Origin: Oligoflexales bacterium
Lineage (GTDB): Bacteria > Bdellovibrionota_B > Oligoflexia > Oligoflexales > RGVZ01
Assembly: GCA_044236265.1 (NCBI GenBank)
Contig: JBIIGV010000057.1
Location: 1 to 18,573, forward strand
Reading direction: 5' to 3'
Length of the DNA: 18,573 nt
Made by a program: the position numbers and the translations under genes. Positions within the stretch are counted from its first letter, which is position 1. Each line of letters begins with the position of its first letter. The notes under the pieces are model-generated. The model saw only the letters and a list, made by a program, of their open reading frames with translations. It did no database searches and was not told where the DNA came from. Shown here one piece after another: positions 2 to 18,573 of the stretch.

Positions 2-1120
2 GCTGAAATGATTGTCAGCCGGCCAGCAGGGCAGCAATTTGCACTCGTGGAAGCGAGGGCCGGAGAGGCAAAAGCGACTCCCTCCAGCGGTGAAGCCAAA
101 TTAGTATCTTCCCTAAATTCCCCATTTCTCTTATCAAACCCGAAAGACCCGGCTATTTGGATTAACTCACCCGCCCCAGAGCAATTCATCATTGCCAAAG
201 AGGGATTCGCGGCCGTGTTGTTTTCTTGGCACTCCAACAAGCCCTTGGGTAACGCCAATATTCTTGTACGTAATTTAGCTACAGGCGAGATGACGATTCA
301 CGAAGCATCAAAAGCCCGCGAAGACATCACACTAGCCTCGGGGTCATACAGCTGGTCCGTAAACACCGGAGGACTGATCTCCGGCTCGCGACGATTTCAC
401 GTCAAAGGTGACGCACCCACCGATGGTATCGCCGACAGAAAGATCGCCTCAACCACTCGTAAGGTAGCCACAAGTGATTCGACTGTCGATGCAACAAAGG
501 AGCCAAGCGCCATCAAGCCGCAGTCGGAAGCAGCACCCGTGTTAGAACGACCTAAAATTAAAATTGTGGAGCCGACAGAAGGATTATCTATTCCTGTAGA
601 GAGTTTAACGGAGCAACGGGTGCACTGGTCTGCGACAGGCGATGTAGACTCTATTGATCTTGAAATCCTTGGGAGTTCTGGCAATCCTGCCAAACAGTTT
701 ACACTTGAGGGCGACCGCACACGCCGACGATTGCCAGCTCTTCCTCCGGGGCGTTATACAGTTCGCGTTCGGGCCAACGGAATTCGTGATGATGTGACAG
801 CGAGTAGTGCCTGGGCAGAAACATTTTTTGACGTCGTACAAACAGAGCCAGGTCAATTAGCCCCCTCGGATGTTAAGGTATCTACGACAAAAAAAGGGAA
901 CACCCCCTATATCCTGATCGAATGGTCTAAAAGCACAGCCCCTCGTTATCAGGTGACGATGACGACATCTGATGCTCCCGCAAAAGTGGCGCGAACGACA
1001 AAATCTCAGGTACTGCTGAACATGCCTAAAGATACCGTCAAAGACATCGAAGTTTGTGCATTGGATGCAAACCTTCAAGTCAGGGGCTGCGCGCCCAAGA
1101 TTGAGGAACCCCAGTTATGA
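2..1120 (+). CDS. 5'-truncated extracytoplasmic protein with Ig/fibronectin type III-like beta-sandwich domains (possibly the C-terminal part of a FecR-domain protein)
   Basis: The frame is open to the left edge (GCT GAA ATG at 2-10), so the true start is probably upstream. FN3-like segments: GRYTVRVRANG and LAPSDVKVST...LIEWSKS...YQVTM. The stop overlaps the next start (ATGA at 1117-1120). Confidence 0.55.
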   Translation, partial: AEMIVSRPAGQQFALVEARAGEAKATPSSGEAKLVSSLNSPFLLSNPKDPAIWINSPAPEQFIIAKEGFAAVLFSWHSNKPLGNANILVRNLATGEMTIHEASKAREDITLASGSYSWSVNTGGLISGSRRFHVKGDAPTDGIADRKIASTTRKVATSDSTVDATKEPSAIKPQSEAAPVLERPKIKIVEPTEGLSIPVESLTEQRVHWSATGDVDSIDLEILGSSGNPAKQFTLEGDRTRRRLPALPPGRYTVRVRANGIRDDVTASSAWAETFFDVVQTEPGQLAPSDVKVSTTKKGNTPYILIEWSKSTAPRYQVTMTTSDAPAKVARTTKSQVLLNMPKDTVKDIEVCALDANLQVRGCAPKIEEPQL

Positions 1121-6648: not shown

Positions 6649-7779
6649 TTAGCGAACATAGGCCAGTCCTACATTGCCGGAAGTAACCTGACCCTTGTCT
6701 TCAATAAAATTACTATTTTTCGAGTCATAGGACTTGCTGTCTAAACGCACCAAAAGCCGCCACCCCAGCATCGAACCCCAGCCGACTTGAGCAAAAAGAC
6801 GCGAAGACCTGGTGTTGCCAGTCCCGGAACTCGATCGAAATACTCCGGCCTGACGTCCGCCTCCTAGCTCAAAGGCCCAATGCCGTCCTTGCCTACCTGC
6901 GCTAACTTCATAGTCAGTCGTTTTAACGGTCTCACTATTGAGCCGATCATCCGCCTCAGACCGTCCAAGACCGACACCAAGCCAAAATTGATCACCGAGA
7001 GCAAAACGCATCGGGACTGAATAGGTTATGGCTGGGCGCCGATCATCACCATCAATGCTAACCTCCGCGGCCGCGTGAGCCCAACGTCCCTGATACTCAA
7101 TCGCTAAAAATTTCTGATTTGCATCGCGTTGCTCTTTGGTCTCGTTGTAGCCTTTCTTAGCGGAAACGATAACTTCATTGATTGTTTTCGAAAGATAACG
7201 TCGCGATTGATAACCAGCGCCAATCCACAGACCAGGTCTTGGCCTGGCCGCCACCGTGATCAGGCCTGAAGGCACATCGCTCATTTCAGTTACGACCGTA
7301 CTAAACGTCGCACTTTTGCCTCTTTTTTTCAGGCTTGTGCGTTGAACTTCCAAAGCAGCACTCCAAAACACCAAACCTTGTGACGAAGCCTGCCCATGCT
7401 GAATGGTCAGAGTACCCTCTTCCGAAACCGTGTCCAGCGGCGCAAAAAGCGCGGGAGAACGCGTAGTTCCCTTACCTGATCCTGCCGTCCCTGAGATCAA
7501 AGATCGTGACTCAGGGGTCAGCGAGCCCGGCGTTGAGGCAACTCCTAAGGGAAATATCCACGTTGGAAAAAGCGCCATCGACGGTCGCGATGCAAAAAAA
7601 GGATCGTGACGCTCGGCCAACGACTCCATGACGGGAGGTGGGGGCGGCCAAATCGGAGCGCCAACGTCAGAGGAGCCCTCAGCTAAAATACCGCCCGCAT
7701 TCTGGGAAAGCGCAGAATGGCAATCGCTTAGGCCAAGGACCCCGACGATAACAAAGTATTTTGATCGCACCAAAAACAT
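6649..7779 (-). CDS. Hypothetical exported protein, probable outer-membrane beta-barrel
   Basis: N-terminal signal-like segment and Pro-rich linker (WPPPPPV), followed by many alternating amphipathic strands (LWIGAGYQ, FWLGVGLG, YEVSAG, WAFELGGG, LFAQVGW, GNVGLAY). The start is ATG 7779 or GTG 7785. Confidence 0.6.
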   Translation of the reverse strand: MFLVRSKYFVIVGVLGLSDCHSALSQNAGGILAEGSSDVGAPIWPPPPPVMESLAERHDPFFASRPSMALFPTWIFPLGVASTPGSLTPESRSLISGTAGSGKGTTRSPALFAPLDTVSEEGTLTIQHGQASSQGLVFWSAALEVQRTSLKKRGKSATFSTVVTEMSDVPSGLITVAARPRPGLWIGAGYQSRRYLSKTINEVIVSAKKGYNETKEQRDANQKFLAIEYQGRWAHAAAEVSIDGDDRRPAITYSVPMRFALGDQFWLGVGLGRSEADDRLNSETVKTTDYEVSAGRQGRHWAFELGGGRQAGVFRSSSGTGNTRSSRLFAQVGWGSMLGWRLLVRLDSKSYDSKNSNFIEDKGQVTSGNVGLAYVR

Positions 7780-7808
7780 TGGCACCCCGATGATGATGGC
7801 TCAGTCAT

Positions 7809-7864: not shown

Positions 7865-7880
7865 TGGAACAGCGATTGCA
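7865..7880 (+). promoter_or_regulatory. Sigma54 (-24/-12) promoter
   Basis: TGGAACAGCGATTGCA: GG-N10-GC with TTGCA, ending 38 bp upstream of ATG 7919 (GAGGA RBS in between). Confidence 0.7.
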
Positions 7881-7918
7881 TCCCGCAAAGAAGTTAAATA
7901 TGCACCGATGAGGATGTT

Positions 7919-8863
7919 ATGAACACAAAGTACCCGCCTGTGATATTGGCCACCGAGAATAATACAGTGAAAAATCGACTGCTTGAAAAACTGGTGCACC
8001 TGGATCAAGCAGCAACTTGCATAGCTCCATCCGAGCTCGAGCTAAATCCCGAGCAATTTTTCTCAGAACTGCCAGCCATTTTGGTCATAGACGTCACCAA
8101 AGCGATGGCCGGACTACTACCAGAAAAAATCCTCTCCATCAGGCGTCAAAGCTTACTCAAGGTTATAGTCCTTGGTGACCCAAAAACGATCAATAAGTTT
8201 TCATTTTTCGATGACACTCGCCCATTGACGATGATCTCATCAGATCCAAGCATTAGCGAACTTGCTCACGCCATCAACTTTTGTCGAGCCAAGCTTGATC
8301 TGCAGGTGCTCGAGCAAGAGCAAAAAAAAGAGCATTGGACACAAAGAGCGCTCCAGGGATTGTATGAACGCACAAGCGAGAAAGAAGCTCAAATGGCTGG
8401 TATTATGGGAATTACAGCCACCGCACTCAATGCATTGAGCGCCGTGCTTACCATCGGATCTCTGCAAACTATAAAATCAATCGTCTCCCACTCAGGCGCA
8501 AAGCCCGATCGACTTGAACTTCTGTGGAAACGCCTACCAGATCTTGAGTTTGACACTGGGCCGTTGTCGCAATTTTTACAGATAAAAACAGTTGGGCAAA
8601 GTAAGACTTCCGGTTTCAAATCTGCACATGTTTTTTCACCAACAACAGCCCTCATCACACGAATTTCAAGACCAGGACATAAAACTCAAATTATGTGTGT
8701 CCTGGCGGAGCCAACTCACAGTTTCAGAGACTTCGAAAAGCGAATCTTTATGCAAGCGGCTCTCATGACTAGTATCCTAACCGAGTCAAATCAGAAGACT
8801 GAAAGAAGTCTCATGACTACAATCGAGACTAGCTTACTCAATCATCCAGCAGAAATTTTATGA
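7919..8863 (+). CDS. Hypothetical signalling protein: degenerate (pseudo-)receiver domain, helical linker and GAF-like domain
   Basis: Receiver-like periodicity (VILATE..., PAILVID, KVIVLGD, SDPSISELAHAI) lacking the acidic pair, Thr/Ser and Lys. The C-terminal MCVLAEPTHSFRDFEKRIFMQAA resembles the end of a GAF domain. Confidence 0.55.
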   Translation: MNTKYPPVILATENNTVKNRLLEKLVHLDQAATCIAPSELELNPEQFFSELPAILVIDVTKAMAGLLPEKILSIRRQSLLKVIVLGDPKTINKFSFFDDTRPLTMISSDPSISELAHAINFCRAKLDLQVLEQEQKKEHWTQRALQGLYERTSEKEAQMAGIMGITATALNALSAVLTIGSLQTIKSIVSHSGAKPDRLELLWKRLPDLEFDTGPLSQFLQIKTVGQSKTSGFKSAHVFSPTTALITRISRPGHKTQIMCVLAEPTHSFRDFEKRIFMQAALMTSILTESNQKTERSLMTTIETSLLNHPAEIL

Positions 8864-9318
8864 CTTACGAGACGCTTCATCATCTCCAATATTTTCACGG
8901 CGCCCATGCTTTTCGAGGCAAAATCACGGACGCCAGGATGTTCCTGATCTTGAGAACGCCGAAGAACAGAGGCATCCGCACTAACAAGAACCGTCGGTAT
9001 AGATCCAAAAAAAGATCTCAAGTGGGAGACAAGATCGAGTCCATCATGCTGCCCCAGATAGTAGTCAACAATAGCTCCATCGTAACGATTAATTCTCGAG
9101 AAGGGATCCAAATCCAGCAGAGTCTCGATTGCATCTACATCCAGGCCAAGGAGTGGACCAAGCTTTACCAAGACTGATCTAAATACGGGATCATCATCGA
9201 TGAGCAAAATCTTCGGTAATTCGGCAGCGCTGATGCCATCACCCATCTTGGTCGCACGATTCGACACGAAAGGCGACTCATGCAATGCAGGCTCATTATC
9301 ATTTGAAGGATGCTCCAT
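8842..9318 (-). CDS. Stand-alone response regulator receiver (CheY-like) protein
   Basis: KILLIDDDPVFR, AIVDYYLGQHDG (phospho-Asp), PTVLVSA, FASKS. No output domain. ATG 9318 is preferred because it overlaps the upstream small ORF stop (TGATG). Confidence 0.9.
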   Translation of the reverse strand: MEHPSNDNEPALHESPFVSNRATKMGDGISAAELPKILLIDDDPVFRSVLVKLGPLLGLDVDAIETLLDLDPFSRINRYDGAIVDYYLGQHDGLDLVSHLRSFFGSIPTVLVSADASVLRRSQDQEHPGVRDFASKSMGAVKILEMMKRLVSHKISAG

Positions 9319-9434
9319 CAGGAAATCCCATCCAAAAGTTTTTGTAATGCAATCACAACTCCCAAGACCCAAAAGCGACTAACAAAAACGAGAAGCTCAC
9401 TTAAAGCCAGAAAAATACCGACTAATAACGTCAC
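9318..9434 (-). CDS. Putative 38-aa hydrophobic small membrane protein
   Basis: AAAGGGG RBS, 6 nt spacer, GTG at 9434. Encodes MTLLVGIFLALSELLVFVSRFWVLGVVIALQKLLDGIS. Its TGA overlaps the ATG of the receiver gene, and it lies just downstream of a sigma54 promoter. Confidence 0.6.
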   Translation of the reverse strand: MTLLVGIFLALSELLVFVSRFWVLGVVIALQKLLDGIS

Positions 9435-9481
9435 GTTGCGCCCCTTTCCCGCTTCTTCCGCACTGATTCTGACATATAGGG

Positions 9482-9498
9482 AGCAACGTTTATGCCAA
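9482..9498 (-). promoter_or_regulatory. Sigma54 (-24/-12) promoter driving the small ORF and receiver gene
   Basis: Minus strand TTGGCATAAACGTTGCT is a near-consensus TGGCAY-N5-TTGCW. Confidence 0.82.
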
Positions 9499-9571
9499 GT
9501 TTCGCGGATGGACAGACGAGCGACTGGACGCCTAGCCAAGAAAATCCAAGCCCAGAACGGGGACAAATCCA

Positions 9572-9716
9572 TGTATCAAAATGAAACATTGTATCGATTT
9601 TTTGCTACAGGTTTTTCTGGGTATATAGTGGATTTCCCTCTCTTGACCGTAATCGATACAACAGATAAAAGCGCGCCAACGAAACATCTAAAGCGCACTT
9701 GTATCAGTCTGATACA
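9572..9716. promoter_or_regulatory. Cluster of palindromic TGTATC-N5-GATACA boxes (candidate enhancer/operator sites of the adjacent NtrC-family regulator)
   Basis: TGTATCAAAATGAAACA (9572-9588), TGTATCGATTTTTTGCTACA (9590-9609, longer spacer), TGACCGTAATCGATACA (9644-9660) and the perfect palindrome TGTATCAGTCTGATACA (9700-9716). Confidence 0.68.
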
Positions 9717-9745
9717 GTGCCGCAACTGCAGAAGGAAAGCCACGC

Positions 9746-11113
9746 ATGCATATGATTACGAACCGGAAATTGGCTCTTGTCATCGACGATTCTGAGGAGG
9801 CGCGCCTTATTTATTCGACGGCTCTTAAAAGTATCGGCTTTGATGCAGTGCCGCTCTCTGGTTTGCCATCGCGGGACTTCTTCGAAAATCGTTCGATCGA
9901 TTTGATTCTTTTGGATATGAATCTCGGAAATATAAACTCGATCGATTACATCAAAGACTTGGCAAAACACAGTGATGCCAAGATCGTCGTTATGACTGCG
10001 TTTGGTGGAATTGAGTCCGCTGTAGCAGCTGTCCACAATGGAGCATCTGGCTTCTTTGTGAAGTCTGATCCAATTGATTCACTCCTTCCGAAAATCCAAG
10101 CTTTATTTCAAGCACAAAAGTCGATTGGTCGCGTCGAAACATTTCTTGAGGAATGCGGAATAAAAGGAACAAGCAGAGCCATGAAAAGCCTTGGGCAACT
10201 CATCATGCAGGTCGGGCCCACCGCAAGCACGGTTTTGATCAGCGGTAGCTCGGGTGCTGGCAAAGAGCTGATCGCACATGCGATCCATAAATCATCAGGC
10301 TGCAATGGACCATTTGTAGCCATCAACTGCAGCGCTATCCCTGATCAACTTCTAGAGAGCGAGTTATTTGGTGTCAAGCGCGGTGCCTTTACCGACGCCA
10401 AGCAGGATCGCCAGGGAGTTTTGGACGCTGCAGCTGGCGGAACCATCTTCTTGGATGAAATCGGCGAAATGCCGCTGCCGCTGCAGTCCAAGTTGCTACG
10501 AGTGATTCAAGAGTGCGAATTCACACCTCTTGGAGGAACTCAGCCAGTTAAAATGCGCGCTCGCATCGTTTGCGCCACGAATCGCAATCTCATCCAGATG
10601 ATGGCGGATGGCAAATTTCGTGAAGATCTTTATTATCGCATCGCAGTTATAACCCTTAAGGCGCCCGATTTAAGCGAGCGCAGCGCTGACATTCCTATTC
10701 TTATCGAACATTTTCTTGGTATCTATAACCGCAAATGTGGCAAACATTTGAAAATGCCGCTCGAATCAGAACTATCGATTCTTGCATCTTACCCTTGGCC
10801 AGGCAACGTCCGCGAGTTGCAAAATGCGGTCGAACGCGCCACGGTCTTAGGCACGGGCGACCGTCTTTCCATAAATCTGATGCTGCCGCCAACCCAGGTG
10901 ATTAATTTGCCCCAAACTCAAGAAAGGTCAGGCCCTCAGAGGACCGGATTCAATTACAAGACAAGCATCGACGCCTTTGAGCGCACATTCCTGACTGATC
11001 TGCTAGCTGCAGCCAATGGCAATATGTCAGAGGCTGCAAGGCTTTCTGGTATTTATCGTGCAAATATCTACCGCATGGCGAAGCGACTAAACATAAGCTT
11101 AAAGAAAGATTGA
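9746..11113 (+). CDS. NtrC-family sigma54-dependent response regulator (REC-AAA+-Fis HTH)
   Basis: REC motifs VIDD, LILLD, VVMTAFG, FFVK. AAA+ motifs GSSGAGKE, ESELFG..RGAFTDA, FLDEIGE, Q.KLLRVIQ, FREDLYYR, WPGNVREL. HTH GNMSEAARLSGIYRANIYR. Confidence 0.96.
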   Translation: MHMITNRKLALVIDDSEEARLIYSTALKSIGFDAVPLSGLPSRDFFENRSIDLILLDMNLGNINSIDYIKDLAKHSDAKIVVMTAFGGIESAVAAVHNGASGFFVKSDPIDSLLPKIQALFQAQKSIGRVETFLEECGIKGTSRAMKSLGQLIMQVGPTASTVLISGSSGAGKELIAHAIHKSSGCNGPFVAINCSAIPDQLLESELFGVKRGAFTDAKQDRQGVLDAAAGGTIFLDEIGEMPLPLQSKLLRVIQECEFTPLGGTQPVKMRARIVCATNRNLIQMMADGKFREDLYYRIAVITLKAPDLSERSADIPILIEHFLGIYNRKCGKHLKMPLESELSILASYPWPGNVRELQNAVERATVLGTGDRLSINLMLPPTQVINLPQTQERSGPQRTGFNYKTSIDAFERTFLTDLLAAANGNMSEAARLSGIYRANIYRMAKRLNISLKKD

Positions 11114-11123
11114 GAGGAATGTC

Positions 11124-11486
11124 ATGACAATCAATCGCGATGAGTATCAAAAGCTAAAAAACATGTTAGCCGCAAACGGCCAACTAGAGAGCGTGATCCA
11201 AGCGTTTGTTAACCACTCTTCAATACGATTGGAAGATTTACAGAAGTCCATTGCCGCACAGGATCTTGAGTCCATACTGAAAATCGCCCACGCTATCAAA
11301 GGATCATGCGCGATGTTGGGCGGAACCCAATGTGCACAGCTCTGCGACGCCATCGAAAGCGCATGTCGTCATTCACACCCTGGCGAACTCCCAGAGCTAT
11401 TGGCCAAACTAATTATAGAGATCAGATCTATTGCAGAATTTCTACAAAACGATCGCCCTGTAAATACCCAGGGGTGCTGCGAATAA
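11124..11486 (+). CDS. Stand-alone Hpt (histidine phosphotransfer) domain protein
   Basis: AHAIKGSCAMLG matches H-x-x-K-G-x-x-x-x-x-G, followed by LCDAIE. GAGG RBS, 10 bp after the regulator stop. Confidence 0.92.
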   Translation: MTINRDEYQKLKNMLAANGQLESVIQAFVNHSSIRLEDLQKSIAAQDLESILKIAHAIKGSCAMLGGTQCAQLCDAIESACRHSHPGELPELLAKLIIEIRSIAEFLQNDRPVNTQGCCE

Positions 11487-11590
11487 GATCTGCGATATTT
11501 TAATTCATCGATAATCCACCGATCTCGGACCGTGGAGATGCGAAATCTACCCAATCTCTGTTTTCTGCCAAATATGATACCTCCCGTCAT

Positions 11591-11606
11591 TGGGCGTCGA
11601 TTTGCA
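11591..11606 (+). promoter_or_regulatory. Possible sigma54 (-24/-12) promoter of the hpf-like gene
   Basis: TGGGCGTCGATTTGCA: GG-N10-GC with TTGCA, ending 24 bp upstream of ATG 11631. It deviates from consensus just after GG. Confidence 0.5.
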
Positions 11607-11630
11607 ACTAGCTAACGAAGGGGGTTTGTC

Positions 11631-12122
11631 ATGTTTTTTCAGTTTGCATTTAAGAAAATGGATCCATCAGACTCGCTGATGACGATGGCCATCGACAAAA
11701 TCGAATCGCGTATTAAAACGTTCTCGGGCCACTGTATTAATCCGCAACTCACATTCTCCTCGTATCGTGGTATGCAAAAGATTCATTTCTCCATGTTAAC
11801 CAATGACGGTTTTAAAATTGAGGTCAGTCACAGCGGTCCTGACATGTATGCCGAAATCGACGAGGTCGCCGACCGCATTGAATCCCAGCTGCGAAAACAC
11901 AAAGAACGCCTTCGAGACCACAAAGGCCAGAGTGGCATCAGGGCCGCCGCAGGGGCGATGTCGGACGGCTACCTTGATCGCTCGTGGGACGATCTCCTGC
12001 ATGAGCCTAAAACCATTGATGCCGAAGATATCCTAAAATATGAGACGGCACGTCGCGACATACTGAAACGCCGCCGCCACGGTCGGCGATCCAAACAATC
12101 AATGGCAGTAATAGTCCATTGA
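11631..12122 (+). CDS. hpf: Ribosome hibernation promoting factor HPF/RaiA-like protein with atypical C-terminal extension
   Basis: S30AE pattern: F..MDPSDSL...A.DKI... and DMYAEIDEVADRIESQLRKHKERLRDH. AAGGGGG RBS. Confidence 0.85.
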   Translation: MFFQFAFKKMDPSDSLMTMAIDKIESRIKTFSGHCINPQLTFSSYRGMQKIHFSMLTNDGFKIEVSHSGPDMYAEIDEVADRIESQLRKHKERLRDHKGQSGIRAAAGAMSDGYLDRSWDDLLHEPKTIDAEDILKYETARRDILKRRRHGRRSKQSMAVIVH

Positions 12123-12150
12123 AAACGGCCTATTACGCTACCTCTTTGAT

Positions 12151-12188
12151 GCCAGCCGCAGCCTTGTATCACAAGGGCTCGGTCTGGC
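12151..12188 (+). terminator. Imperfect long hairpin after hpf (possible terminator)
   Basis: GCCAG-CCG-CAGCC-TTGT-atc-ACAA-GGGCT-CGG-T-CTGGC followed by TAAATTTTGT. The U-tract is weak. Confidence 0.4.
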
Positions 12189-13617: not shown

Positions 13618-14523
13618 TTAATTATTTGCAAACTCAAAGATCTTTTCCTCCAAGAGACTCGTAGGAACCGCCTTGTAAACTGGCTTGTGATGGCGTGTGT
13701 CCTGCCACGTAGCGTCCACAGTCTGAGTTGCCAAATCACCCATTGTTGCCTCTGGCCTCTGCGCCTTCAATGACGAAAACACCTTCCGCAAAGACCAAGT
13801 AAAAGCTCCGCCCTTTTCACGGCCGTAATCGAGACTTGTTTGTGTCTTTTTTGACGCTGCAAAAGTCAAAAACTGCTCTATGCTATCAGCGCGGCCCTTA
13901 TCACTACTGCCCGTCAATTGGTCTGCCATAAGCTGAGCCTGAGCATCTGCAAGAGCTTGGGCCACCTCTGGTGAGTGGTCAGCAAAAAACTCTGCGGGCT
14001 CATTCAGGTTCTTCATATCATCCGGAAGAGAACCGTTACCATCAACCCAGTGCCCGGAGTAACAGGAGTCGTTAAATGCCATAAGACGCTTGAGTGGCTG
14101 AGCACGACCCGCAGCAATCGCCCTAGCAACCTCTGAATAACTCATCATGCCATTTGCTGTCATAAATTTTCCGTCGTTACTGCCATGACCACTCACATAA
14201 AGTCCTAGCGTTCCAAACTCTCCCACAGCGGCAGCGTTAGCAGTCAGTTCCCGAAGAATGTAGTCTTTGGGAGCGTTCCCGTTACTAATGACATTCCAGT
14301 TAAAACCATTTGATGCGTCATTAAGAACTTTCGTCATCTCACGGATGTCAGTCGCCACACCAGACAATCCATTTGGCGCACCAATGACCAAAAATACGTT
14401 ATGAGATTCTGGATCATAGGGTCTAAATTTTACGGACGAAGAGCTAACTCCACGACCACAGCCCACCATGGTCAGCGTTGCGAGCGCAAATATCGTTATC
14501 TTAGCTACGCCAAATTTAGGCAT
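13618..14523 (-). CDS. Caspase-family (peptidase C14, meta/orthocaspase-like) lipoprotein
   Basis: Lipobox MVGC. Catalytic dyad motifs YVSGHGS and FNDSCYSG, plus LSGVATDIREM, FAAS...QTS and GGAFTWSL. AAGGAG RBS. Confidence 0.88.
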   Translation of the reverse strand: MPKFGVAKITIFALATLTMVGCGRGVSSSSVKFRPYDPESHNVFLVIGAPNGLSGVATDIREMTKVLNDASNGFNWNVISNGNAPKDYILRELTANAAAVGEFGTLGLYVSGHGSNDGKFMTANGMMSYSEVARAIAAGRAQPLKRLMAFNDSCYSGHWVDGNGSLPDDMKNLNEPAEFFADHSPEVAQALADAQAQLMADQLTGSSDKGRADSIEQFLTFAASKKTQTSLDYGREKGGAFTWSLRKVFSSLKAQRPEATMGDLATQTVDATWQDTRHHKPVYKAVPTSLLEEKIFEFANN

Positions 14524-14777: not shown

Positions 14778-15527
14778 ATGCAGACCGCTTGGTTAGAAAC
14801 AGATGAGAAACTTTTAATTTTTGCCACAGAAGATACCAACGATGACTCTATTTTCGGATCTGCACTGACGCGTCTCATTTATGGAGTCTCAACAGCGTTT
14901 GGTGAAGAGCGCCTGCGCTACCTGCGTAAACGCATCCTGACTACAGGCAGGATGACTTTGTGGGAAAAAAATCTCATCAAAGTCTGCGCTAAACGCGCGT
15001 CGACAGTATCAGAGTTTCGAACGGATCAATTTAACGAGTCAAAATACATCGATATCGGCGCCACCATGAACACAGATACCAAGGCCTTAAGACGCCAGGA
15101 TCTGATCGGAGCAAAACTCTTAGAAACCCCTGCGTTGGACATTCTTAGGCTAATTGCAAACGAAGACTCGCTTACAGCACAAAACGAAAAACTGAAACAA
15201 CATCAGAGATCACGCCCTATCAGCGCGATCATATGCGACGATAACGATACTGTGTTAGCAATTGCCGTGAACACGAATGCATCCTGCCAAATGCGGCACG
15301 CTGAGGTGAATCTTTTTCTGCAGCTTCGCTCACAAGGAATTAGAAAGCTTCCGGCTGGCAGCAAAATCTACACATCACTGAAGCCCTGCCGTATGTGCGC
15401 GGCCCTAATACTTGAGTACGCCTGTGACTTAGGTCAAGGACACACCCGAGTCGTTGCTCTTGAGGATGATCTTGGTCCAATGGGCCGACATCGCCTGCTC
15501 GACGGCATGCTGCAAATACAAGGCTGA
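14778..15527 (+). CDS. Bd3614-family nucleic acid deaminase (Zn-dependent CDA fold with Bd3614-like N-terminal domain)
   Basis: HAEVNL and YTSLKPCRMCAALI deaminase motifs. The N-terminal SALTRLIYG...LRKRILTT...IKVCAKR resembles the Bd3614 N-domain as I recall it. Confidence 0.82.
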   Translation: MQTAWLETDEKLLIFATEDTNDDSIFGSALTRLIYGVSTAFGEERLRYLRKRILTTGRMTLWEKNLIKVCAKRASTVSEFRTDQFNESKYIDIGATMNTDTKALRRQDLIGAKLLETPALDILRLIANEDSLTAQNEKLKQHQRSRPISAIICDDNDTVLAIAVNTNASCQMRHAEVNLFLQLRSQGIRKLPAGSKIYTSLKPCRMCAALILEYACDLGQGHTRVVALEDDLGPMGRHRLLDGMLQIQG

Positions 15528-18025: not shown

Positions 18026-18573
18026 ATGTCTCAAATTGAAATCGAAAGCAAATCTAGCCACAGCCCCTCGACTAACTCGGAGGTCCAAGGCCGTTGGGTG
18101 AAGCTTCCGGAAAAATATCTGCGCGATCCAACGCTTATTTTGATTCTGGTTGCCTATGCGATCATCATCCAGCTTTTTTACACAACTGACTTCCGCAAAT
18201 CTCTCGAAAACTTTTTTTTCGATATACGCATAAAATGGATGCCACCTACAACCACAACCCCGAACGTCTTCGTTATCAAAATCGATGATGATAGCATAGA
18301 GAGGCTCACCAAGGACCCTCTAAGACTGCGAATCGATGGCCAGCGTCGACCCTATTTACCAACCGCTCTCCTCACCAAGGCCACAAGCATTTTGGCCAAT
18401 ACAGAAGCACGAGCCATTGCCCTGCTCATGCCAGAGAATGCCTTCCCCGCAACTGACATCGACCTGAATGAACTAACTCTTATCGGCAAATATGATAAGC
18501 GTATCGTTTTCGGAACTGTCGGATATAATCAGACTCAGCCCAATCTAGCAAAGTTACCCCCAGCCTTTTCAAC
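18026..18573 (+). CDS. 3'-truncated membrane-anchored CHASE2-domain sensor protein (absent from the ORF track)
   Basis: My translation from ATG 18026: MSQIEIES...TLILILVAYAIIIQLFY (TM) TTDFRKSLENFFFDIRIKW...NVFVIKIDDDSIERL..., open to the window end. LE..F.D.R and V..I.IDD.S are CHASE2 N-terminal hallmarks. Confidence 0.72.
   Translation, partial: MSQIEIESKSSHSPSTNSEVQGRWVKLPEKYLRDPTLILILVAYAIIIQLFYTTDFRKSLENFFFDIRIKWMPPTTTTPNVFVIKIDDDSIERLTKDPLRLRIDGQRRPYLPTALLTKATSILANTEARAIALLMPENAFPATDIDLNELTLIGKYDKRIVFGTVGYNQTQPNLAKLPPAFS

Follow-up and report, generated by a model that had tools for sequence, protein, structure and literature searches.

A predicted phosphorelay of LuxO-LuxU layout with a divergent sigma54-dependent unit in an Oligoflexales bacterium

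The 18,573-nucleotide stretch of Oligoflexales DNA analysed here (called the window, and identical with the whole contig C72 of genome G000, an assembly of 3.25 Mb that is 88.7% complete) carries a gene for a sigma54-dependent activator that is directly followed by a gene for a free Hpt protein. We predict that these two proteins belong to a phosphorelay laid out like the LuxO-LuxU relay of Vibrio. In this relay an unlinked MASE1-PAS hybrid kinase would supply the phosphate, the activator would act through two 17-bp palindromes on a divergent sigma54-dependent unit, and a neighboring hpf gene would be an accessory passenger reached by read-through. We give this reading as a whole about an even chance of being right; the relay is supported by the evidence presented below, and a direct ribosome-hibernation switch is not supported. 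If correct, it would provide a fully named relay, including kinase, Hpt, activator, binding site and target promoter, for a lineage that has seen hardly any regulatory genetics. A first-pass annotation, made from the letters of the window, had stated that no description of such a module was known. An activator and an Hpt protein served by unlinked hybrid kinases are the described layout of Vibrio LuxO-LuxU, and to that extent the module is not new; the literature that we searched, mostly without subscription journals, contains no description of the relay in Oligoflexales, nor of an hpf gene driven by an Hpt-linked activator. Comparisons were made with a genus sample of 13 genomes (G000-G012) and an order sample of 94 genomes.

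The activator (9746..11113, plus strand; 455 amino acids) has the REC-AAA+-HTH architecture, with an intact phospho-acceptor Asp57, Walker A and B motifs, a GAFTDA loop for contact with sigma54 and a linker glycine, Gly138. The Hpt gene begins 10 nt behind it (11124..11486, plus strand; 120 amino acids; PF01627, 55.5 bits), and the phospho-accepting histidine of its product, His56, is invariant in 11 of 11 sequences. Among the five Hpt matches in G000 it is the only stand-alone protein, with no fused kinase. Our analysis confirmed the order of five contiguous genes that the first-pass annotation had proposed: a pseudo-receiver/GAF protein, a stand-alone receiver, the activator, the Hpt protein and an HPF-like protein. 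It also confirmed that the block contains no histidine kinase (a scan of 23 window proteins detected no kinase domain; the window end truncates a CHASE2 ORF at 18026), and the small ORF noticed ahead of the receiver is real as well (38 hydrophobic codons, 9434-9318, minus strand). The description "kinase-less" is accurate for the gene order of G000 and fails for the system, since hybrid kinases of the HisKA-HATPase-REC type, without Hpt, lie within the cluster in G002, G003, G007 and locus L106; in G003 a PAS-PAS hybrid kinase stands directly behind the block.

The activator (69-84% identical) is directly followed by Hpt in eight of the 13 genus genomes, in one of them (G008) across two contig ends. 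The expected synteny is present for activator and Hpt and breaks down for hpf, which is absent behind Hpt in four of these eight genomes (G001, G004, G005 and G006). In the same four genomes the receiver unit is encoded elsewhere and no GAF gene was found. The entire five-gene block is found on one contig in G000 and G003 and on two in G008; it is split in G012, where the GAF gene is shortened to 88 codons.

The best sequence match of the activator in the PDB is Vibrio LuxO (5EP0), and Gly138 aligns with Gly141 of LuxO from V. angustum. According to one report, this linker glycine is a conserved residue throughout the LuxO proteins and is missing in related NtrC proteins (PMC4878744). We found it in nine of ten Hpt-linked activators, in none of the 11 other activators of G000 and in two of 71 distant activators, which suggests that a feature described as special to Vibrio LuxO recurs with Hpt relays in another phylum. 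Membership in the Vibrio families is a different matter. The activator scored 297.6 bits with the LuxO family model NF041946 (cut-off 800), below its scores with the AtoC, NtrC, PrdR and PEP-CTERM models, and the Hpt protein scored 17 bits with the LuxU model NF041948 (cut-off 140). Because of these scores, the lack of a Qrr RNA and a different binding site (see below), the relay is not a member of the LuxO-LuxU family, although it is predicted to work like one.

The first-pass annotation had supposed that an unlinked kinase feeds Hpt and the activator, and we found a specific candidate for this role. The protein encoded at C218:21812-24232 has the composition MASE1-PAS-HisKA-HATPase-REC, and among 22 HATPase and 32 receiver matches in G000 it is the only one with a C-terminal receiver and no Hpt; the other two proteins with both HATPase and receiver domains are an N-terminal-receiver kinase (C222) and a CheA-like protein. 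Its orthologue is the single match at E<=1e-40 in seven of the eight genomes that carry the activator-Hpt pair (at most 48 candidates were scored per genome), the eighth being G003. In G002 the orthologue (37% identity over 791 amino acids) is part of the cluster itself: small ORF, receiver, pseudo-receiver and kinase stand in this order on the same strand, downstream of a single sigma54 site, and Hpt is divergent. It is therefore likely that the C218 kinase is the protein that would feed Hpt and the activator. A further stand-alone receiver of the hybrid-kinase type is encoded in G008 between Hpt and hpf (L035:688-1131, minus strand), and its best match in G000 is the receiver of the C218 kinase.

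G000 encodes rpoN and 12 sigma54 activators. We scored sigma54 sites with a matrix trained on 43 sites from other contigs of the genome, picked at no more than one mismatch to the consensus, so that odd sites are penalised. Perfect consensus sites in G000 are intergenic in ten of ten cases, against 1.4 expected. The first-pass annotation had marked three GG-N10-GC strings as promoters; all three strings are present, and two of them stand as predicted promoters. The stronger one (9482..9497, minus strand; predicted start 9471) scores 18.7 bits with one mismatch to the consensus, a value equalled or exceeded by 15 sites in G000, and is conserved in ten of ten loci (13.0-21.4 bits in all nine loci of relatives). 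It precedes a hydrophobic ORF of 38 codons with one predicted membrane helix (9318..9434, minus strand), whose stop overlaps the ATG of the stand-alone receiver. In all ten loci the promoter and the receiver are separated by a hydrophobic ORF (38-50 amino acids in nine, 104 in G012; peak hydropathy 1.5-2.95); that of G000 has no Pfam match. The receiver (8842..9318, minus strand; PF00072, 37.5 bits) has an intact active site, with D41-D43, D85, S113 and K136 invariant in ten of ten orthologues, and its 3' end overlaps the convergent GAF-fold gene by 22 nt. Two other candidates in this region were rejected. A Qrr-like RNA in the leader of 180-260 nt has no Rfam match and a fold no better than chance (z -0.51), and the leader holds the ORF. 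A plus-strand ORF of 161 amino acids (9310-9795) was treated as a shadow frame: among 13 related loci it has a single match, which is weak, spans 38 amino acids and falls on the operator region.

When 14 promoter regions were searched for motifs, a 17-bp palindrome of the type TGTATCA-N3-TGATACA emerged. At width 17 the motif reached 11.8 bits, against 9.7-10.1 bits in three shuffles; widths 14, 16 and 18 gave nothing better than shuffles. A perfect copy at 9700..9716 lies 30-46 nt ahead of the activator ATG, where it is predicted to be an autoregulatory operator, and a copy with one mismatch at 9572..9588, some 109 nt upstream of the start at 9471, is predicted to serve as an enhancer. The former is the sole perfect copy in 3.24 Mb, and besides the latter no other copy has fewer than two mismatches. 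Under a matrix made from 13 sites of relatives only, they score 21.9 and 20.7 bits and rank first and second in 3.24 Mb, with the next site at 15.6 bits. Both palindromes occur at the same spacing in G008. In the four genomes where the receiver unit has moved, one copy (1-3 mismatches) remains 60-68 nt ahead of the activator and another (3-4 mismatches) is located 115-116 nt upstream of the receiver promoter, the arrangement to be expected under control of both by the activator. No palindrome was found ahead of hpf, of the pseudo-receiver promoter, of the promoters of an 80-amino-acid ORF described below (ORF80) or of the kinase (best P 0.05-0.98). The earlier proposal that the regulator induces its own phosphate sink and modulators thus fits the receiver unit, with its promoter in all ten loci and its paired palindromes; the pseudo-receiver gene has a real sigma54 site that lacks the palindrome.

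Taken together, these predictions suggest the following mechanism. Phosphate would pass from the histidine of the MASE1-PAS kinase to its own aspartate, then to His56 of Hpt and Asp57 of the activator, which would otherwise be autoinhibited through linker Gly138. The activator bound at 9572 and 9700 would open the 9482 promoter and damp its own, switching on the divergent unit of membrane peptide and intact receiver. The induced receiver could then drain Hpt as a competing phosphate sink. The weakest step is the part assigned to the 38-amino-acid peptide, which, by analogy with MgrB and SafA, might feed back on the membrane kinase and modulate it. In G000, hpf would be read through from the activator-Hpt mRNA and would not be driven by sigma54; read-through is the simplest arrangement because the 144-nt gap between Hpt and hpf is without a hairpin (z = +1.48) and a hairpin lies behind hpf (12150..12187, plus strand; region z = -2.35), a possible transcript end at which no T-run terminator was called on the plus strand.

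Several observations weigh against this mechanism. The activator of G003 has Glu at the position of the linker glycine, and the predicted model of the G000 activator (11-row) deviates from 5EP0 by an rmsd (root-mean-square deviation) of 16.8, no better than from NtrC1 or NtrX, and does not reproduce the receiver-ATPase packing of LuxO. In G002 (89% complete) kinase, Hpt and receiver are present and an activator orthologue was not found; in G011 the kinase is present without the rest of the relay. The palindromes match poorly in G012 and G002 (4 mismatches), and none was found in the G007 and L106 loci. Their rank in the genome is partly circular because the 13 sites of the matrix were chosen by similarity to a consensus read partly from G000. 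The 38-codon ORF is poorly alike among loci, with 45% identity to its counterpart in G008 and 17-30% to the others. In G008 Hpt and hpf are separated by a convergent receiver gene, and read-through cannot hold there. Other kinases may be missing from G000, given the incomplete assembly, and the related genomes of our samples are kin and should not be counted as independent. Finally, the relay is predicted from sequence, promoter control and phosphotransfer included.

The position of hpf in this scheme deserves separate treatment. The gene (11631..12122, plus strand) encodes an HPF/YfiA-family paralogue of 163 amino acids, supported by PF02482 (50.7 bits, cut-off 23.7) and TIGR00741 (42.1 bits, cut-off 40.9). 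It is one of three hpf paralogues in G000 and falls into a clade of four (support 96/95; G003 on a long branch), whereas the conserved hpf of the order sits beside recD2 and forms a separate clade (25 rows, 100/99). The long-HPF dimerisation domain PF16321 has no match in G000, in a search that detects eight of 14 controls, and formation of 100S dimers is not predicted because RMF was not found in G000 either. The 31 full-length HPF rows all terminate in a short acidic motif, DAxD or a near variant, 30-45 residues after the HPF domain, and the cluster protein shares a C-terminal helix motif with solved HPFs. At L042:6261-8615, rpoN of G000 is followed not by hpf but by an ORF that we take, from its N-terminal sequence, to be RapZ-like.

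The first-pass annotation had the activator induce hpf directly from the third GG-N10-GC string (11591..11606, plus strand), forming a signal-controlled switch for ribosome hibernation. We consider this unlikely. The string keeps TGG and TTGCA and is the only GG-N10-GC in the 144-nt gap, where a string of the form TGG-N8-TTGCW (here TGG-N8-TTGCA) would be rare by chance (about 0.7-0.9% of cases). The slot behind Hpt is also a sigma54 output slot in relatives: all four genomes without hpf there have, after Hpt, a sigma54 site of 14.4-17.0 bits followed by ORF80. Since ORF80 is located behind hpf in G003 and L229, an ancestral unit of promoter, hpf and ORF80 is plausible, and G003 has a 5.3-bit string at the hpf slot. 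Against this, the 11591 string scores 3.4 bits with three mismatches to the consensus, its function is doubtful, and its score is equalled or exceeded by 9,811 sites in G000 and, among 25 conserved hpf genes, upstream of 10. Sites of its class are not enriched ahead of genes (9/97 against 10.4 expected), in contrast to better classes (36/100 and 18/24 against 10.7 and 2.6), and a bare GG-N10-GC precedes 352 of 1410 genes. Neither G008 nor G003 keeps the site, no palindrome lies within 300 nt of hpf (best 6.8 bits, P 0.13) or at the ORF80 promoters, and half of the pair-bearing genomes have no hpf behind Hpt, with the conserved hpf located elsewhere. The claim that the regulator directly induces hpf is therefore not upheld for this accessory paralogue, and the 11591 string may be a decayed or chance site. 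Were direct induction true after all, a sensor kinase would control ribosome silencing directly; judged by the sequence, this is the less likely reading.

An alternative that we regard as improbable to a similar degree retains the relay and gives hpf a non-sigma54 promoter of its own, making it a mere neighbor. G000 and G008 have in common a conserved stretch some 50-100 nt upstream of hpf, ending in TATGAT/TATGGT, in spite of the convergent gene in G008. However, no sigma70-type pair was called there, the stretch is seen in two sequences only, and a chance neighborhood is at odds with the finding that all four clade members whose context is usable are found behind Hpt or in the equivalent position ahead of thyA.

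Elsewhere in the order the case for sigma54 is better. A sigma54 site of at least 10 bits precedes five of 28 accessory hpf genes (20 further order-wide matches are included, and the G012 copy, without upstream DNA, is left out) against one of 25 conserved ones, and four of the accessory genes adjoin an activator gene; because of these figures, sigma54-driven accessory HPFs probably exist in the order. The same excess speaks in general terms for direct induction, and the evidence that the window hpf is itself sigma54-driven is thin. Accessory hpf genes with sites of 10.7-16.1 bits were seen in other families of the order (L234:7300-8290, L294, L298, L309 and L293), some beside activator, kinase or receiver genes, and for these a direct link is more credible than for the window hpf. 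A metagenome scan for further hpf loci gave one locus, without upstream DNA. The gene that immediately follows an accessory hpf in G010 and G007 (L038:7828-9005, L039:3093-4055) is histidine phosphatase-like, presumably SixA-like by its motif. Near the G003 block a baeRF3 release-factor-like, and thus translation-related, gene (L037:2250-3518, minus strand) carries a sigma54 site of 14 bits close to its 5' end. ORF80 was not found in G000 and has no Pfam match above cut-off and no usable Atlas match. Its undescribed family comprises proteins of 78-94 amino acids with the pattern TxYExC...LxG...ExADLxE and 30 unnamed homologues, encoded either downstream of hpf or, without hpf, after a sigma54 site that directly follows Hpt; members include L062:5603-5836 (minus strand), L065:2614-2853, L037:10817-11098 and L229:431-703.

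A wider and rather unlikely proposal is that Oligoflexales own a separately evolved relay of the LuxO-LuxU type, with the same linker brake, in much of the order and with proteins in place of small RNAs as outputs (feedback peptide, sink receiver and, driven from a sigma54 slot after Hpt, accessory HPF paired with the protein of 80-90 amino acids). A tree built from 76 ATPase domains places 40 of the order's activators together at 87% SH-aLRT (Shimodaira-Hasegawa-like approximate likelihood ratio test) support, and 39 of them carry the linker glycine. An Hpt domain is encoded near 30 of the 40 in the DNA examined, from loci that were partly selected for Hpt, and a profile built from these activators was matched in 55 of the 94 order genomes. 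A careful tree of 46 rows did not hold the group together with support. Three LuxO-like gammaproteobacterial proteins (581-649 bits, below the LuxO cut-off), just one of which has the linker glycine, stand apart from the activator in the best tree, which includes no Vibrio sequence and omits four rows that were long or partial; an approximately unbiased test does not reject a joint clade (p 0.20).

The remaining gene of the block (7919..8863, plus strand) encodes a 314-amino-acid protein with no Pfam or NCBIfam match above cut-off, for which just eight homologues were found. Its predicted structure (pLDDT, the predicted local distance difference test, 76) consists of an atypical receiver, a helix of 40 residues and a GAF fold, in agreement with its Atlas neighbors; the best PDB folds are 6OB8 and 6OAQ (TM 0.55-0.67). 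The receiver has lost the acidic pair, the Ser/Thr and the Lys, so that of the residues of a phosphorylatable receiver the Asp alone is kept (Asp58, retained in seven of ten alignment rows), and the protein has no output domain. The promoter ahead of the gene (7865..7880, plus strand; predicted start 7891) scores 16.0 bits with one mismatch to the consensus, equalled or exceeded by 56 sites in G000. Sites of this type are at the matching position in G008 and G012 (12.6 and 12.9 bits) and farther upstream in G003 (10.8 bits), giving a matching place in three of four loci. The gene is thus predicted to be sigma54-dependent, perhaps through another of the 12 activators because no palindrome is present there (best -1.0 bits). 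Divergent from this promoter is an ORF of 378 amino acids (6649-7785, minus strand) that belongs to no family; an alternating pattern and a terminal motif suggest an outer-membrane barrel, and its position is kept in G008 and G012.

That palindrome-free promoter, together with the 12 activators, the incomplete assembly and the other kinases within the cluster in G003, G007 and L106, could favor a different wiring, with Hpt fed by the C222 kinase, the CheA-like protein or an unassembled kinase, or with the palindromes and the two promoters under other activators, but we judge this very unlikely, since the MASE1 kinase is one-to-one with the pair in seven genomes and located inside the G002 cluster, and palindrome copies accompany both the activator gene and the receiver promoter.

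Further features of the window lie outside the block. A caspase-domain, lipoprotein-like gene (13618-14523, minus strand) and a gene for a Bd3614-like deaminase (14778-15527, plus strand) are found in the conserved thyA-folA-yebC-recJ neighborhood, and another sigma54-like site of 13 bits (490-505, minus strand) inside the first ORF is probably there by chance.

The proteins of the block can be compared with several known systems. The divergent unit resembles the membrane feedback peptides MgrB and SafA and the single-domain receivers that act as phosphate sinks, in having a short hydrophobic ORF and an intact receiver without an output, both predicted to be controlled by the relay; the 38-amino-acid ORF has no sequence match, and the likeness is one of analogy. 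The 314-amino-acid protein is alike in predicted fold to receiver-GAF sensor modules (PDB 6OB8, 6OAQ, 6OAP and 3P01), but it is only 12-14% identical to them, with a degenerate receiver site and neither a kinase nor any other output domain. The cluster HPF agrees with HPF/YfiA factors in both family models, and ribosome silencing is predicted for it by family; unlike long HPFs, it has a tail with the order-wide DAxD motif in place of the dimerisation domain. Where hpf is a known neighbor of rpoN in two reports (PMC3162934, PMC9977809), this hpf is an accessory third copy beside a phosphorelay.

The closest comparison is with the Vibrio relay from LuxN, LuxQ and CqsS through LuxU to LuxO. The Vibrio receptors send phosphate via Hpt to LuxO, which represses its own transcription (PMC3130561), luxOU is a single mRNA (PMC2632942), and qrr1 adjoins luxO, with two LuxO sites at -119 and -89 of the qrr1 start (PMC11443567). 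The Oligoflexales locus shares with it an activator gene followed by a free Hpt gene, the linker glycine and 5EP0 as the best PDB match, and its predicted target unit adjoins the activator gene just as qrr1 is described to adjoin luxO. It differs in that the predicted target is a unit of peptide and receiver with no Rfam RNA, the activator has a GAFTDA loop, and the candidate kinase is of the MASE1-PAS type. The binding sites differ as well: the LuxO site TTGCA-W3-TGCAA and the palindrome TGTATCA-N3-TGATACA have just the inner CA-N3-TG in common.

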